Shown here piece after piece: positions 25,603-64,000 of a stretch of 64,000 bases of DNA. A model generated the notes under the pieces. It had not been told where the DNA came from and ran no database searches. It worked only from the letters and a program-made list of their open reading frames with translations. The stretch is from Phycisphaerae bacterium (lineage in GTDB: Bacteria > Planctomycetota > Phycisphaerae > UBA1845 > Fen-1342): assembly GCA_050115495.1 (NCBI GenBank), contig JASFQK010000002.1, forward strand, positions 96,001 to 160,000, written 5' to 3'. The number at the start of each line of letters is the position of its first letter. Within the stretch, counting starts at the first letter, position 1. The translations under genes and the position numbers were made by a program.

Positions 25603-25656
25603 TCGCAGGTCCGATATGCCGCAGCCCTTGTCTTGGCACTGGCTTGGCCCGCCGAT

Positions 25657-26166
25657 ATGATGGGCGGGATGCGTCGGGTTCTTGCCGACAAGCTGATCAG
25701 TATTGGTGGCGGGGTAGCGCTGCTGCTTCTTCTGGCCGTCCAGGAGAAGGTCTGCCCGCAGTTGCTCGAACCGCCCGCCGCGCCGGCGAAGTCGCGTGCG
25801 GCGACGCCGGCGACCCCCGCGCAACCGCAGACTCCCGAACAAGACGGATCCACCGAGCCCGAGCCGATTCCGCTGACGCTGACCAGCGTGCTGCCGGATG
25901 CGGTGCCGGCTCGCTGGTCCGGTCTGCCCAGCCGGGCTTCGGTGCGCGACACGGCCGGCTGGTGCAGTGGTGTCTCCGCCCGCCAGCCCCTGCTGCCGCC
26001 CGCCAGCGCGGCGGGGCCGTTTGTGGATCTCGACGCCACGCCGTTCTGGCGCTTGGCGCAGTGGTTACCTACCCCGGAAGGGACGCTGCCGCGCGGCGAT
26101 GCGCCGCCCGTGCGTGATCCCGCCCTCCACACCGTGCTTACGAGAACCGGACCGCCGCAGGCCTGA
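25657..26166 (+). CDS. TM-anchored Pro-rich leader ORF upstream of secDF; candidate translation-arrest peptide
   Basis: N-terminal TM (LISIGGGVALLLLLAV), Pro/Ala-rich linker, C-terminal TRTGPPQA*; ends 121 nt before secDF. Confidence 0.65.
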   Translation: MMGGMRRVLADKLISIGGGVALLLLLAVQEKVCPQLLEPPAAPAKSRAATPATPAQPQTPEQDGSTEPEPIPLTLTSVLPDAVPARWSGLPSRASVRDTAGWCSGVSARQPLLPPASAAGPFVDLDATPFWRLAQWLPTPEGTLPRGDAPPVRDPALHTVLTRTGPPQA

Positions 26167-26287
26167 GCCGTGCGGTGTTCCCCGGCCATCTCCCGGCCGG
26201 CCGTGGCTCGCGCTGTTGCCGCAGCCGTAGCCTGAATGCTCGTAAGCAAGGTCCAAGCGACGTTGTACGTCCGTTGAGGAACCCTCT

Positions 26288-29200
26288 ATGTGGGAAAAGA
26301 ACCTGAATCAGAAGTTGCTGTTGATCGGCGTCGTGATCCTGTTCGGCGCCCTGCTCATCTACCCGCCCAGCGAGAAGCTGCGGCCCGGCCTGGACATCGC
26401 CGGCGGCGTGGCGTTGATCTTCGAAATCGACGACACCGGCTTGGAGGGCGACCCGACGCTGGCCGAGCAAATGAAGCAGTTGCTCCAGAAGCGCGTCGAC
26501 CCGAAAGGCGTGTTTGACATTGCCTGGCGCGTGCACGGGCGCAACCGCCTCGAAGTGCAGATCCCGCTGCCGCCGCCCGGCGTGACCGAGAAGCGGGAAG
26601 CCTATGCGGACAGCCTTGACAAGCTCTTCTCCGGGAACGTCACGCGCGGCGAAATGGAGACGGCTTTCGCCATGACCGGCGACGCACGCGCCGCCGAGAT
26701 CGCCCGCCTGGCCCACGGCCAGCCGCATCGCGAGCAACTGCTGACGAAGGCCGCGGAGGCTTTCGACGAGTATCAGACGGCCCTGGCCGCATATCGGCGT
26801 GGGCCGGAAGCGCCTGCCGAGAGCCAGCCGACCGAGCCCGCGGCCTCGCAGCCGACCGAGTCCGCCCCGGCCTCGCAGCCGACGAGTGCCCCGGCCAAGA
26901 CGCGCATTGATCTCGAGGACGACCTGAACGCGGCCGAGGACGACATGGACGAGGCCTACGCCGCGTTCCTGGCGACCAACCTCAACCGCGCTCGCTTCCT
27001 CGAGGTCCTGAGCATGGATCAGGGCTCGGAGATCCGTAAGAACCACCTCGCCGAGTTCTCCAAAGAGCACCCCGAGCTGCAGAAGGAGATCGAAGCGGTC
27101 GTCGTGGCACACGCCGCCTGGCGCAAGAACAGCGGTTACCTTGACGGCGCGGCCGATCTGCAGCGTTTGCTGCGTGGTGCCGGCGTGCTCGAATTCCGCA
27201 TCCTGCCCACGCACGAGCGGGAGAACCCGACCAAGTACGACGTGCAGCGCCGTCAGCTCCGGGAGCACGGCCCCCTGCCACGGGAGGGAACACTCGGTTG
27301 GTTCAAGGTGGACAACCCGCTGTCCTTCTTCGACCTGAAGACGCCGGCCGACCTGGCCGAATTCAGTCAGGCCTCCACCCGCTACGTCGTCGAGAAGCAC
27401 GGCGAGGATTACTACGTTCTGGCCAAGCTTTCCCCGGAGGACGGCCTGCTGGCCGAGAAGAAGAACTGGCAGTTGCGCTCGGTGTCGATCTCCCGTGACC
27501 AGCACGGCAGACCGTGCGTCAACTTCGCCCTGGACGTGGTTGGCGGCGGGCTGTTCGAGGAGCTCACCCGCAAGAACATCGGCAACCCGCTGTGCATTCT
27601 CGTCGACGACGTGGCCTATTCCGCCCCCAACATCCAGAGCAAGATTCGTTCGAACGGCCAGATCACCGGCGACTTCAGCCGCGAGAAGGTGACCTATCTC
27701 GCCCAGACCATGCGGGCTGGCTCGCTGCCCGCCCGTCTGCGCGAGACGCCCATCTCCGAGCGTACCATCGGCTCCAGCCTCGGTGCCACCAACCGCGACC
27801 TGGCCTTCCGCGCCGGCCTGATCGGCGTGATCGTCGTCGCCAGCTTCATGGCCATGTACTACCTCGTCTGCGGCCTGGTGGCCGACGCGGCCCTGGTGCT
27901 GAACATCGTGCTGGTCCTGGCCATCATGTCCCTCCTGCAGGCCCGCTTCACGCTGGCCGGCATCGCCGGTGTGATCCTGACCATCGGTATGAGCGTCGAC
28001 GCCAACGTGCTCATCTTCGAGCGCATGCGTGAGGAGAAGGAGCGCGGCTCATCGCTGCGACTGATGTTGAAGAACGGCTACGAGAAAGCCTTCTCGACCA
28101 TCGTCGACGCCAACATCACCACCCTGCTCACCTGCGTGATTCTCTATTACGTCGGCAGCGAAGAGATCAAGGGCTTCGGCCTGACGCTGGGCTGGGGCAT
28201 TGTGATCAGCTTGTTCACCGCCCTCTTCGTCACCCGCACGCTGTTCATGTTGCTGATCAAGTATGGGCTGCTCAAGGACATCAAGATGCTCCGCTTCATC
28301 GGCGTGCCCAAGGTTGACTGGTACGCCAAGCGGAAGTTCTTCATCCCCCTGTCGATCAGCCTCGTTGCCTTCGGCCTGTTCCTGCTCTGGGAACGCGGCT
28401 CGGATCAGTTCCTGGACGTCGAGTTCCTCGGCGGTGTCAGCGCCGAAATCGAGGTCAAGCCGCCCCAGCAGGGCGAGGAAGCGCTCGACGACGTCGAGAT
28501 CGGCGAGCTCATGGTGGAGGCCGGTGGGAAGATCGCTGCCGACGCCGACAAGCTGAACCAGGCCGAGGTGAGCTCGGTCGTCGGCGATCCAGCCGCCTTC
28601 CGAGTGCACGTTCCGGGGCTGACCGCCGCCCGCCTCGAGGCCATCCTCACCGAGCCCCTCGAGGATCAGAACGCACTTCAGCGTGGCGGCATGCGGCCCC
28701 TGCCGGACGAGCAGGCCGTCATCGTGCATATGGCGGGCAACCAGGACAGCGACTGGCTCCGCGAGTTCGTGAAGGGCGAAGTGGCTGACGTGCGGAAGGC
28801 CGGCGAGGAAATCGCCAAGGCGACGGTCGGCTCGGTCATGGAGGCCGGGTTCGAGGAGAAGGCCGGGCGCTACTGGAGCGTCACTACCACCGAGAAGAAC
28901 CGCCGGTTGGTGCAGGAAGCCCTGGAGATGGCCCTGGGCAACCGCCTCGAGCGCCAGCAGCGCATCACCTACCGTTTCCGCGGCGATTCCCAGGAGCGGC
29001 CGCTGCCCATCCTCGGCCAGCGGCTCGACAACGTCTTCCCCAACGCTCAGTTCCCCGCCGGCGTGGCCGCGGAGCCGCTCATCGAGTACCGAGACGGTGC
29101 GGCCATGTTCTTCGACGACCTCGACCCGCCGCAGAGCGTCAATCCGGAGGTGTCCGGCTCGCTGCCCGACCGCCTGCGGAACATGCGCTTGCAGCCGGGT

Positions 29201-30007
29201 TACCAGGAGTACCCCTTCCGCAAGTTCAAGGTCATCGGCGTGCGGCCGACCGAGGAACGTGACGACAAGGGTGGCCCCCTGTATGCGAGCGTCGTCGTCG
29301 TCGTTGTGGACGAGAACTTCCGCTACAACGACGATACGGCCGCCTGGTACCAGCAATTCGCCGAGCCGGAGCTCGACCTGGCCAAGACCGCCCTGGACAC
29401 CGAGCAGTCCTTCCGGCGCGTTTCGCAGTTCAAGCCGCAGATTGCCCGCCGGGCGACGACCCAGGCCGGCATGGCCCTGCTGCTCTCCTGGGCGATGATC
29501 ATCGGCTACCTGTGGATCCGGTTCGGGCGGCCTATGTTCGGTATCGCCGGCGTGGTGGCCCTGATCCACGACGTCTGCATCGCCCTGGCCTTCGTGGGCA
29601 TCGCCGGCTGGCTTGGCGGCACGAAGCACCCGATCGGGGCAGCCCTGCTGATCGACGACTTCAAGATCAACATGACCATCGTGGCGGCGTTCCTGACGAT
29701 CATCGGTTACTCGATTAACGACACGATCGTCGTGTTTGACCGCATCCGCGAAACGCGCGGGCGGCTCGGACAGGTCACGCCGCAGATCATCAACGACAGT
29801 ATCAACCAGTGCATGTCGCGTACGTTGCTGACGTCGGCGACGACGCTGGCCATTCTGGTGGTCATGTACATCTTCGGCGGCGGCAGCATCCGCGGCTTCA
29901 ACTACTGCATGATCATCGGCGTGCTCACCGGCACGTACTCGTCGGTCGCCATCGCGGCCCCGCTGCTGATGGTCCAGATGCACCGTAAGAAGTTGTCGCC
30001 GATGTGA
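26288..30007 (+). CDS. secDF: Protein translocase SecDF fusion with large periplasmic insertions
   Basis: GLDIAGG, AGSLPA, IGMSVDANVLIFER, DANITTL, DVEFLGG, IGYSINDTIVVFDRIRE, GTYSS. Confidence 0.96.
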   Translation: MWEKNLNQKLLLIGVVILFGALLIYPPSEKLRPGLDIAGGVALIFEIDDTGLEGDPTLAEQMKQLLQKRVDPKGVFDIAWRVHGRNRLEVQIPLPPPGVTEKREAYADSLDKLFSGNVTRGEMETAFAMTGDARAAEIARLAHGQPHREQLLTKAAEAFDEYQTALAAYRRGPEAPAESQPTEPAASQPTESAPASQPTSAPAKTRIDLEDDLNAAEDDMDEAYAAFLATNLNRARFLEVLSMDQGSEIRKNHLAEFSKEHPELQKEIEAVVVAHAAWRKNSGYLDGAADLQRLLRGAGVLEFRILPTHERENPTKYDVQRRQLREHGPLPREGTLGWFKVDNPLSFFDLKTPADLAEFSQASTRYVVEKHGEDYYVLAKLSPEDGLLAEKKNWQLRSVSISRDQHGRPCVNFALDVVGGGLFEELTRKNIGNPLCILVDDVAYSAPNIQSKIRSNGQITGDFSREKVTYLAQTMRAGSLPARLRETPISERTIGSSLGATNRDLAFRAGLIGVIVVASFMAMYYLVCGLVADAALVLNIVLVLAIMSLLQARFTLAGIAGVILTIGMSVDANVLIFERMREEKERGSSLRLMLKNGYEKAFSTIVDANITTLLTCVILYYVGSEEIKGFGLTLGWGIVISLFTALFVTRTLFMLLIKYGLLKDIKMLRFIGVPKVDWYAKRKFFIPLSISLVAFGLFLLWERGSDQFLDVEFLGGVSAEIEVKPPQQGEEALDDVEIGELMVEAGGKIAADADKLNQAEVSSVVGDPAAFRVHVPGLTAARLEAILTEPLEDQNALQRGGMRPLPDEQAVIVHMAGNQDSDWLREFVKGEVADVRKAGEEIAKATVGSVMEAGFEEKAGRYWSVTTTEKNRRLVQEALEMALGNRLERQQRITYRFRGDSQERPLPILGQRLDNVFPNAQFPAGVAAEPLIEYRDGAAMFFDDLDPPQSVNPEVSGSLPDRLRNMRLQPGYQEYPFRKFKVIGVRPTEERDDKGGPLYASVVVVVVDENFRYNDDTAAWYQQFAEPELDLAKTALDTEQSFRRVSQFKPQIARRATTQAGMALLLSWAMIIGYLWIRFGRPMFGIAGVVALIHDVCIALAFVGIAGWLGGTKHPIGAALLIDDFKINMTIVAAFLTIIGYSINDTIVVFDRIRETRGRLGQVTPQIINDSINQCMSRTLLTSATTLAILVVMYIFGGGSIRGFNYCMIIGVLTGTYSSVAIAAPLLMVQMHRKKLSPM
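26813..26895 (+). repeat. Short imperfect coding repeats (S-Q-P-T x3) in the SecD insertion
   Basis: PAESQPTEPAASQPTESAPASQPTSAP; CAGCCGAC repeated three times. Confidence 0.7.
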
Positions 30008-61525: not shown

Positions 61526-64000
61526 TCAATCGCCCGGCACGGTCGATCCCTTCGGGTGGTCCTCGATGATCAGGGGCCCGGCGCCGTCGGCGAAGGCCTC
61601 GAGGTCCAGGCGATCCAGGCGGCCGTCGCCGTTCAAGTCGGCGATGGCCAGCTCTTCCAGCCCCAGGACCTGCAGGTCGAAGACGGAGATGGACTCCAGC
61701 GGCGCGTCGAACCAGTGCGCGCTCATGTTGAACGTCTGGCAGCAGTTCACGTCGGACCACACCAGGAAGTTGACGCGTACGTACTCGAAGTCCTCACGCC
61801 AGGCGCAGCCGTTGCTGCTGAAGTCAGCGTGGTAGCGGGCCGGCTGGGCGTGCGGATCCCACATACCGCACGGCGTGTTGCCGTCGTCGACGCCGTCGCC
61901 GTCGCTGTCGTAGTGCGGGTGCGACATCTCACAGACGAGGATGCCGTAGTCGCGGATGTCGATGTAGTTGTCGTCGTTGCCATTGCCGCCCAGCAGCACG
62001 TTGGCGGGGCCGACGAACTCCGCCGCGTAGTGGTCGCCTTCGACGGCCAGGTCGACCGTGCGGCGAATGGTGTGCAGCTTATCGCGGGCGGTGATGCAGT
62101 TGAACGCGCCGCACGGCGCGTCGGGCAGCAGGGCCTCGGCGATGGCCACCGTGTGCGTGCCGTCGCCGGAATCGACGAACGTGAGCATGGTTTCGTAGAT
62201 TTCGGGCTGCGGGTTTGGCTCGTCGCAGTTCCACAGTTCGAAGGTGATGCAGCGGTCGACTGTGTCGTTCGGCTCGCCGGCGCAGGCCACCTGCATGGCC
62301 ACGCGGACGCGCAGCGGCGTGTAGGGCGCTACATCGACGTAGAACGTGCAGTCCGTCTGGTTGCCGGCGCGGTCCTCCGCCGTATACGTCACCGGCGTGA
62401 CCCCGGCCTCGAACCAGTCGCCGGGCGAGTGCGTGGACGACACGCCCATCAACTCGCAGTCGTCCGTCGCCTGCGGCTCGGTCCAGGTGACGTACGCCCC
62501 GCACTGCCCCGGCAGCGGTGTCGCGTTGATCGTGTCAAAGGGTTCCTCGGCGGTGGCTTCCACCGGCGGGCAGGGATAACCGGGAACGTCGAACGCCGGC
62601 GGAACGTTGTCCACCACCGTCACGTAGAAGATGCACTGCTCGGACTCGTTGCCGGCACCGTCCAGCGCCCGGTAGATCACCGGCGTCGAGCCGACCGGGA
62701 AGATCTCACCCGGGTTGTGGTTCGTCTGCCAGTCGGTCACGCTGCAATTGTCGGTCGCCGTCGGCAGCGGCCAGAACACCTGCGCCTCGCACGCCCCCGG
62801 CGGATCCTGCGGGACGACGACGTCCTCCGGGCAGGTGACGATTTCCGGCGCCTCGGTATCGCGCACCGTGACCTGGAACGTGCAGGGCAGCACCGAGGGC
62901 TGGCCGGTCGAGTCGAACGCTTCGACCGTGACCGTCGTCGTGCCGACCAGGAAGAAGTGCGGACTGGTGATCTCGTTGAAGCCGATGCGGTAGCGGATGA
63001 TCACGCCCGGGGCGTCGTCGCAGGCCCAGGCCTCGAAGGCCACCTCGGCCCCACACTCGTCCGGGTCGTTCGGGTACTCATCGACCCAGTTGTCGACCCA
63101 CGTCTCACGCCACTGCTCGTAATCGCCGGAGGGATACCATGTTTCGTCGCAGCCCGTGCAGCCGGCGTTGCCGGGGCAGCAGATGACGGGCCGCTCGTTC
63201 TCGATGACGACCTCGAAGATCAGCTCGGCCGTTCCGCGCGACTCGTCCGAGGCCACGGCCTTCACCAGCGTGGCGACGTCCTGCGGGAACAGGTGAGGCA
63301 GATCGCGCGGCAGGGAAACGTCGAAGACGCCCGGCGAGCTCTCCAGCCAGTAGGTGATCGGTTGCAGGAACTCGGCGCAGTTGTCGATCGCCGAGATGCA
63401 GTCGGCTTCACCGCCACCGCCGCACTCGAAATCGACGGACGGCGTGAGCCACGCCCCATCGTTCGGCGGCTCCGGCGGGAAGGTGAAGCGCTCCGGACCG
63501 GAGATCACCGGCGGCTGCTCGTCGCCGATCTCGACCGTGAACGTGCAGGTGGGGCTCGCGTTCTCGCAGTCGTCGATCGCTTCGGCCTGGACGGTCGCCG
63601 TCCCCACGTCGAACACGTGCGGGCTGGTGATGGGCTGGTCGTCGATGAAGAAGTGGACGTCGGGATCGGCGTCGCAATCGTCATGGGCCTCGACGAGCGC
63701 CAGGAGATCGACGCTGGCGCTGCACACGTCGGGGTCGTTGGCTTGGTACAGGTCGTCGCATTCCAGCGTCGGCGGCCTCGTGTCCTCGATCGTGAACGTC
63801 GCGGAGAGGGACTCTGCGCTGTTGTCGCACTGATCCGTCGCCCAGAACGTGACTAGCACGTGCTTCGCCTCGCCGCAGTCGACGACCCAGTGCGACGGAT
63901 CGAAGTCGTTGTGCCACTCCGCCGGCGGGCTGCACGTGTCGGACGCCTGTGGGGCATTGAGCCATTCGTCGAACTCGGCCGGGTTCACATCGCCGTTGCA
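61526..64000 (-). CDS. Large HYR-domain protein, partial (5' end beyond window), sharing its C-terminal module with the 57649-61311 protein
   Basis: HYR repeats (F.VG.T.V.Y.A.D.AGN..C.F.V.V); DRCITFELWNCD..TFVDSGDG..CITARD; ADLNGDGRLD; frame open to the window edge. Confidence 0.85.
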   Translation of the reverse strand, partial: CNGDVNPAEFDEWLNAPQASDTCSPPAEWHNDFDPSHWVVDCGEAKHVLVTFWATDQCDNSAESLSATFTIEDTRPPTLECDDLYQANDPDVCSASVDLLALVEAHDDCDADPDVHFFIDDQPITSPHVFDVGTATVQAEAIDDCENASPTCTFTVEIGDEQPPVISGPERFTFPPEPPNDGAWLTPSVDFECGGGGEADCISAIDNCAEFLQPITYWLESSPGVFDVSLPRDLPHLFPQDVATLVKAVASDESRGTAELIFEVVIENERPVICCPGNAGCTGCDETWYPSGDYEQWRETWVDNWVDEYPNDPDECGAEVAFEAWACDDAPGVIIRYRIGFNEITSPHFFLVGTTTVTVEAFDSTGQPSVLPCTFQVTVRDTEAPEIVTCPEDVVVPQDPPGACEAQVFWPLPTATDNCSVTDWQTNHNPGEIFPVGSTPVIYRALDGAGNESEQCIFYVTVVDNVPPAFDVPGYPCPPVEATAEEPFDTINATPLPGQCGAYVTWTEPQATDDCELMGVSSTHSPGDWFEAGVTPVTYTAEDRAGNQTDCTFYVDVAPYTPLRVRVAMQVACAGEPNDTVDRCITFELWNCDEPNPQPEIYETMLTFVDSGDGTHTVAIAEALLPDAPCGAFNCITARDKLHTIRRTVDLAVEGDHYAAEFVGPANVLLGGNGNDDNYIDIRDYGILVCEMSHPHYDSDGDGVDDGNTPCGMWDPHAQPARYHADFSSNGCAWREDFEYVRVNFLVWSDVNCCQTFNMSAHWFDAPLESISVFDLQVLGLEELAIADLNGDGRLDRLDLEAFADGAGPLIIEDHPKGSTVPGD

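Follow-up and report, generated by a model that had tools for sequence, protein, structure and literature searches.

A small unannotated gene directly upstream of secDF, in a 64,000-nucleotide (nt) stretch of a Phycisphaerae bacterium genome (contig JASFQK010000002.1, positions 96,001 to 160,000; hereafter the window), probably encodes a Sec-monitoring arrest peptide. We put at about 0.75 the probability that the signal of this upstream open reading frame (uORF) engages SecYEG, that the ribosome then pauses at Pro162/Pro163, that a late SecDF-driven pull releases it, and that a lasting stall raises secDF expression in cis. The established part of this reading comprises the gene and its conservation, its promoter-like site, and its fixed place before secDF. 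The features concerned, all on the plus strand of the window, are as follows.

25633..25661, plus strand: predicted sigma-70-type promoter, with -35 TTGGCA at 25633-38, a 17-nt spacer, and -10 TATGAT at 25656-61.
25669..26166, plus strand: the uORF, a candidate Sec-monitoring arrest peptide of 165 amino acids (aa), from its open frame, homologue alignment, and ratio of nonsynonymous to synonymous change (pN/pS).
26288..30007, plus strand: fused secDF, 1239 aa, from Pfam and NCBIfam matches.

The original prediction, made from the DNA letters, had described an open frame at 25657-26166 that ends in VLTRTGPPQA* and is followed after 121 nt by secDF. The frame is indeed open with this C terminus, the distance to the secDF ATG (26288) is exact, and Pfam and NCBIfam agree on the downstream gene. 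The start had to be moved: because the ATG at 25657 overlaps the -10 box and the homologues align from the Met at 25669, the uORF most likely starts at 25669. A still earlier start, 25633, was rejected on the same grounds, namely overlap with a promoter box and the beginning of the homologue alignment. The ATG at 25669 stands 7 nt after the end of the -10 box, and a search for TTGGCA-17-TATGAT at the uORF returned one site, with 0.1 expected. Moreover, 69 of 96 homologues have a TAnnnT box 4-9 nt upstream of the start, as do only 22 of 1167 other ATGs, the former count being somewhat inflated by the use of the best of several candidate starts per homologue; 51 of these 69 also have TTG at -35. 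As the promoter box is so near the start, in the homologues too, we infer that the uORF transcript is leaderless or nearly so, and the uORF and secDF share one predicted promoter. The uORF is a real protein-coding gene under purifying selection, with pN/pS of 0.29-0.53 in 12/12 close pairs; neither Pfam nor NCBIfam has a match for its protein. In one wetland RNA run, contigs match the uORF (25683-25861 and 25994-26144) and secDF exactly, at a depth of about 3; we gave them no weight: none of the contigs bridges the two genes, strand and start are not readable from them, and DNA may be present.

To follow the uORF through relatives, we located secDF in 71 of the 72 genomes of the source's taxonomic family and read the upstream region of each, leaving out of the family loci a duplicate contig (L072) and three loci that repeat others. 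A uORF with x[GA]PP in its last 20 aa precedes secDF in 69 of the 71 genomes, the two exceptions having NPPP and LASP in the motif's place. When the uORF was chosen by hydrophobicity alone, x[GA]PP still lay within the 20 terminal residues in 65/71, against 9 of 305 other upstream ORFs, five of which were true uORFs that the hydrophobicity rule had missed. In the other families of the order, such a uORF is present in 43 of 48 genomes (12/12, 9/12, 1/1, 1/1, and 20/22). Altogether, 112 of 119 genomes of the order have x[GA]PP in the ORF upstream of secDF, where the check proposed originally had looked for a conserved xGPP. Among 116 loci of the order, the motif reads TGPP in 51, HAPP in 21, HGPP in nine, and QAPP in four. 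Outside the order, it was found in 0 of the 15 loci read, from 241 secDF loci located; in most of these 15, the upstream ORF is presumably a yajC-like gene, judged by eye.

A profile built on the family matches once per family genome (twice in one, G141), every time beside secDF, and it does not extend to the order's other families, where layout and motif are common and homology is undetectable. The same profile found no paralogues and no use before other genes in 301 genomes of the class, and a motif scan of the source genome likewise found no further uORF of this kind before other genes. In public proteins, the profile has 194 hits; among the best 150, 147 end in x[GA]PP, a count that is not independent of the motif, which the profile contains, and TGPP occurs in 107 and RGPP in two. 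These two homologues carry the canonical RGPP in the same register, indicating that Thr and Arg occupy the same motif slot.

Such features correspond to a published class. Fujiwara et al. (2024; PMC10987492; for this and the other cited papers, statements concern the parts covered) define the RQH family of arrest peptides by position, signal, spacer, and motif list, and on its sequence the uORF answers to that definition: it is (i) a small, unannotated, same-strand ORF directly before secDF (165 aa, 121-nt gap), with (ii) an N-terminal signal or transmembrane (TM) segment by a hydropathy heuristic, (iii) a listed RAPP-like C-terminal motif common to at least three uORFs of the order, and (iv) a signal-to-motif spacer of more than 30 residues. 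The spacer has a median of 131 residues (range 97-173) among 65 family members, which matches the values given for SecM (131.5) and VemP (133) (PMC10987492). Conservation of motif and spacer length, purifying selection, and the RGPP homologues together argue strongly for the arrest-peptide reading. The uORF had been proposed as a planctomycete analogue with a variant TGPP motif, and its order-wide conservation agrees with this; it does not form a new class, however, as TGPP is already among the RQH query motifs, together with HAPP, HGPP, and QAPP (PMC10987492). The covered parts of that paper describe 11 uDF groups of secDF uORFs and name no TGPP peptide among those tested. Since TGPP is absent from its secA table and appears in the covered part of its yidC table only inside ApcA sequences (two rows), this query motif probably came from the secDF table, where the present lineage may already be listed. 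Literature searches on TGPP with arrest and ribosome returned this paper only, and those on arrest peptides with Phycisphaerae returned none; the covered parts of the LudP preprint and of the bioRxiv version of the 2024 paper mention neither TGPP nor planctomycetes.

Within the peptide, five segments can be told apart.

25669..25740, plus strand: N-terminal export signal (basic n-region, Gly/Leu h-region, then QEKVC), from the sequence; it may be a cleaved signal or a signal anchor.
25873..25917, plus strand: conserved mid-chain element, in which a short hydrophobic run is followed by Pro76-Asp77 and Arg82-Trp83; it lies some 80 residues upstream of the predicted P-site.
26047..26049, plus strand: Trp127, at about the tunnel exit, in position -35 relative to the predicted P-site (the family mode is -36).
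26116..26145, plus strand: tunnel-proximal segment, family consensus D-P-A-L-x-T-x-I/L-x-R/P, from conservation.
26146..26157, plus strand: T160-G161-P162-P163 motif, with Pro162 (26152-54) predicted in the P-site and Pro163 in the A-site.

The N terminus had been called a TM segment. It does hold a hydrophobic stretch of about 15-16 residues behind a basic n-region, but it resembles a signal-peptide h-region more than a full TM helix. The best 15-residue hydropathy is 2.53 (family median 2.0; heuristic), and in the family the n-region and Gly/Leu h-region end in AA-QEKVCPW. The long Pro/Ala linker described at first is present as a linker, though not a featureless one, since it contains conserved elements. 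The mid-chain Arg occurs in 94% of 71 aligned rows, at a median of 79 residues before the predicted P-site, and its position varies less relative to the P-site (standard deviation 6.7) than relative to the signal (11.0); in the best profile hits, the distance to the P-site is 70-85 residues for 108 of 143 PD..R matches. Further along the chain, an alignment-free count places Trp at -36 in 18/59 members against a background of 2.1%, and 77 of the 147 x[GA]PP profile hits have Trp at -35 to -37. The C-terminal consensus reads D-P-A-L-x-T-x-I-x-R/P-T-G-P-P, with the motif two residues before the stop in 46 of 65 family members and all four synonymous codons found at the motif Gly and at both Pro across the family. 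The predicted register follows the rule that, in stalled RQH peptides, the P-site holds the third residue of the motif (PMC10987492), and the RGPP homologues set it. A SecM-type register, R-x-G-P (RTGP), was rejected: that Arg is present in only 39/71 rows and is replaced by Pro in 20/71, while G/A-P-P is nearly fixed. One relative (L015) has, in addition, RAGPP twelve codons before its terminal TGPP.

From this anatomy, we propose the following sequence of events. The uORF would be translated from a leaderless mRNA, and its signal would engage SecYEG. The ribosome would then pause with Pro162 in the P-site and Pro163 in the A-site, where the DPALxTxI segment could provide tunnel contacts that replace those of the usual Arg. 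During the pause, the hydrophobic-PD..RW element, about 80 residues upstream, would lie in the translocon, so that a late SecDF-driven pull may be needed for release, as in VemP. In the last and weakest step, a lasting stall would raise secDF expression in cis when export is slow.

Two sets of observations, one on the motif and the other on the route to secDF, weigh against this reading. As to the motif, Arg is found at its first position in 0/112 genome loci and 2/147 profile hits, and each substitution of the motif Arg in ApcA, ApdA, and ApdP weakened arrest (PMC12992588); one HAPP peptide showed low arrest in vivo, possibly through EF-P. TGPP is, moreover, not depleted in the 3286 long ORFs of the source genome (16 seen, 18.5 expected). 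As to the route, we computed, from equilibrium models, which can miss kinetic switches, how much energy the opening of the secDF ribosome-binding site takes when a ribosome sits at Pro162 and when none does. In the source genome, the modelled stall shifts the opening energy of the site (-16..+2) from 9.1 to 8.9-9.9 kcal/mol and that of the Shine-Dalgarno (SD) sequence alone (-14..-5) from 6.1 to 7.0-7.5 kcal/mol. The mean over 59 family members goes from 7.18 to 6.93, with 14 sites opening and eight closing by >1, and the mean change in 37 other members of the order is 0.17. The median distance from P-site to secDF start is 139 nt versus 82 nt for secM-secA. In the E. coli secM-secA control, by comparison, removal of the covered and upstream part lowered the opening energy from 8.6 to 3.5 kcal/mol, and blocking of the footprint alone lowered it to 7.5.

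The motif evidence bears on an alternative that we consider unlikely, in which TGPP is a weak diproline pause relieved by EF-P, and the peptide responds to EF-P status, either in addition to export force or in its place. RGPP (7 seen, 19.8 expected) and RAPP (10 versus 29.9) are about threefold depleted in the source genome's long ORFs, whereas HAPP, like TGPP, is not. TGPP alone is therefore no barrier, and arrest would need the upstream segment or would amount to a weaker, EF-P-sensitive pause. Because Arg is nearly absent from the motif and TGPP is undepleted in the proteome, we only infer stalling. According to Fujiwara et al. (2025; PMC12992588), RAPP arrest resists EF-P. Ribosomes do stall in vitro on Arg-free HAPP and QAPP peptides, and EF-P has been discussed as the cause of lower in vivo arrest in some of them. 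An efp gene also lies within 1.5 kb upstream of secA in 11 of 24 efp loci of the order. A plain pause, on the other hand, would call for none of the conserved parts (the DPALxTxI segment, the Trp at -36, and the PD..RW element), nor for an export signal or a spacer of 130 residues. In the same ORF set, IGPP (5 versus 16.2), LAPP (33 versus 55.6), and LGPP (19 versus 28.3) are depleted as well, and all three occur as motif variants in the uORF family. The source genome itself has efp directly upstream of secA (G000:C9, about 62950-63570), which is curious given the diproline motif before secDF.

A second alternative, to which we give the same low weight, retains the stalling export sensor and lets it act on mRNA level, with the parked ribosome shielding the untranslated spacer from Rho or RNase E. 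The lack of a detectable SD switch, the presence of Rho and RNase E/G genes in the source genome, and the single predicted promoter for uORF and secDF all favor it. The spacer is hardly C-rich, however (C-G skew 0.046), terminator-like sites occur in 10/96 loci against 5.0 expected, with none in this spacer, and RNase J was not found above its cut-off. An intrinsic attenuator was rejected on these weak terminator counts. Two Rho-like genes are present in the source genome (C2:2670-3908 and C30:65761-66855), one above and one below the family cut-off. Both of these alternatives partly overlap with the arrest-peptide reading, and our probabilities accordingly do not sum to one.

The original prediction had assigned the output to an mRNA switch, in which the stalled ribosome melts two helices and thereby frees the SD sequence of secDF. 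The elements concerned are listed here.

26135..26144, plus strand: 5' arm of helix 1, pairing in this genome, not conserved.
26149..26181, plus strand: predicted local hairpin that spans the GPPQA codons, carries the stop codon in its loop, and uses CAGGC.
26239..26248, plus strand: 3' arm of helix 1, which ends some 30 nt short of the SD site of secDF.
26276..26287, plus strand: secDF SD region TGAGGA with a weak GAGG/CCUC hairpin, from predicted folds.

The arms of helix 1, TGCTTACGAG (26135-44) and CTCGTAAGCA (26239-48), are exact complements as claimed, with a pairing probability of 0.91-1.0, and the GAGG/CCUC hairpin at the SD site appears in the minimum-energy fold. Helix 2 (CAGGC/GCCTG) is likewise exactly complementary, but its pairing probability is 0.00 in all four folds that hold both arms, because CAGGC is taken up by the local hairpin around the stop. 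Folding predictions indicate mRNA structure beyond chance in the source genome: among 300 shuffles of 26100-26300, eight produced a stem of at least 10 bp, and the fold of 26120-26310 has a z-score of -3.94. Across relatives, this structure is not retained. In the family RNA tests, which covered those 59 of the 71 loci in which no more than 200 nt separate P-site and secDF start (some of the folding tests placing the L015 motif 12 codons too early), a stem of at least 10 bp is found at this place in only two members, and cognate pairings are no better than non-cognate or shuffled duplexes, nor than those of synonymously recoded codons. Values of z below -2 occur in 7/59 members versus 3/59 for a control stretch; consensus folds of five small clades and sliding-window and whole-region z-scores gave no family-wide signal, and Rfam gave no match. 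Three related members (L034, L049, and L057) have in common a long predicted hairpin that joins the TGPP codons to a stretch further downstream, first G-rich and then U-rich; its inner stems vary. This hairpin may resemble an attenuator in the clade concerned, and SD opening by >1 kcal/mol was seen in none of the three.

These results leave the SD switch improbable, more so than either alternative above. Helix 1 is real and lies beneath the predicted footprint, and kinetic switches can escape equilibrium folding; helix 2, however, does not form, and the opening energies are unchanged or higher. The melting of both helices by a stalled ribosome, with the matching switch, is thus not borne out: helix 1 is unconserved, and the modelled stall leaves the secDF site closed. 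As the output route of the arrest peptide, we tentatively favor, at somewhat less than even odds, a refolding of the 120-nt spacer through structures that vary between genomes, without a conserved SD hairpin. The fullest version of the arrest-peptide reading is more speculative and rather unlikely as a whole: an order-wide leaderless monitor that would stall without Arg through DPALxTxI, be gated by a VemP-like hydrophobic-plus-Arg element, and control secDF from about 140 nt without an SD-masking stem, by mRNA survival or an EF-P-sensitive pause.

Least probable, and by our estimate very unlikely, is that no stall occurs and that the product acts as a small partner of SecDF or SecYEG, either exported or anchored, which is co-transcribed with secDF and uses its C-terminal GPP for binding or processing. 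The conserved mid-chain residues and the uORF's taking of yajC's place before secDF in many members would suit such a partner. Against it, yajC is still present elsewhere in the source genome and just upstream of the uORF in one family (f28), the other families share only layout and motif without detectable homology, and the motif agrees with known arrest cores in sequence, register, and position.

The yajC gene of the source genome lies on another contig. In three f28 genomes (L161, L163, and L166), the uORF stands between a yajC-like gene and secDF and has no detected TAnnnT box in front of it, and in two genomes of a further family (f26; L154 and L157) the yajC-like gene abuts secDF with no uORF; the uORF looks like an insertion into an ancestral yajC-secDF operon. 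A second, split secD/secF-like pair in the source genome (C16:84319-85959, minus strand) has no motif-bearing upstream ORF. SecDF itself (window 26288-30007) is unusually long, 1239 aa here and up to about 1470 in relatives' open frames, with large inserts in its extracytoplasmic parts.

The class of arrest peptide is known; the putative arrest motif here is Arg-free. In the RAPP model, the pocket-filling Arg is irreplaceable in three tested peptides, and the uORF family offers more than 100 naturally occurring variants that lack the Arg, along with two RGPP members that could serve as internal controls, with which upstream tunnel residues or EF-P sensitivity can be tested as a stand-in for Arg. 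Regulation without an SD hairpin would, if true, be a new output route for export monitors.

Among known systems, uA_LPPP of Phycisphaerales and two other planctomycete orders (PMC10987492) is likewise planctomycete, Arg-free, and proline-ending, with an export signal; it differs in preceding secA, in its LPPP motif, and in the orders named, whereas here x[GA]PP stands before secDF, and efp, rather than such a uORF, precedes secA. SecM of E. coli is similar in size (170 versus 165 aa), signal, and spacer; RTGP resembles its RAGP, and an Atlas search scored a SecM cluster at 0.89, although Atlas matches of 0.89-0.90 are leads only. SecM controls secA, and its SD switch was visible in our folding test, in contrast to the uORF, which precedes secDF, shows no switch in that test, has no PF06558 match, and lacks FxxxxWIxxxxGIRAGP. 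ApdA and ApdP (PMC10951233, PMC12992588) also stand before secDF and have the x-[AG]-P-P core, with Gly or Ala second and, in the uORF by prediction, Pro/Pro in the P- and A-sites. Their Arg fills a 23S rRNA pocket (PMC10951233) and is irreplaceable (PMC12992588), whereas the uORF family has Thr, His, Leu, Asn, or others there, and its own upstream segment. With the RQH uDF_RQH peptides (PMC10987492), the uORF has in common the place before secDF, the N-terminal export signal, the long spacer, and the C-terminal x[AG]PP, unlike them in the dominance of Thr and near absence of Arg at the first position; uDF_RQH_Enterobacterales was shown to have an SD-masking stem, of which this family has no conserved equivalent, and equilibrium folding found no opening here, nor on average in the 59 and 37 relatives, against as much as 5.1 kcal/mol in secM-secA.

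VemP, finally, depends on Arg-85 together with a short hydrophobic segment, some 71 residues upstream of its stall site, where the P-site holds codon 156 (PMC11470409). Like VemP, the uORF precedes secDF, has a spacer of about 130 residues, and places a short hydrophobic segment and then a conserved Arg 70-80 residues before the predicted stall site. The arrest motif differs, and the Arg here follows the hydrophobic run after a PD linker instead of three residues; the uORF has no match to VemP among Pfam and NCBIfam families, no direct comparison with VemP having been run, and the parallel is one of analogy. The conservation of the hydrophobic-PD..RW element at a fixed distance from the predicted stall site suggests that VemP's sensing of a late SecDF-driven export step may have arisen twice.

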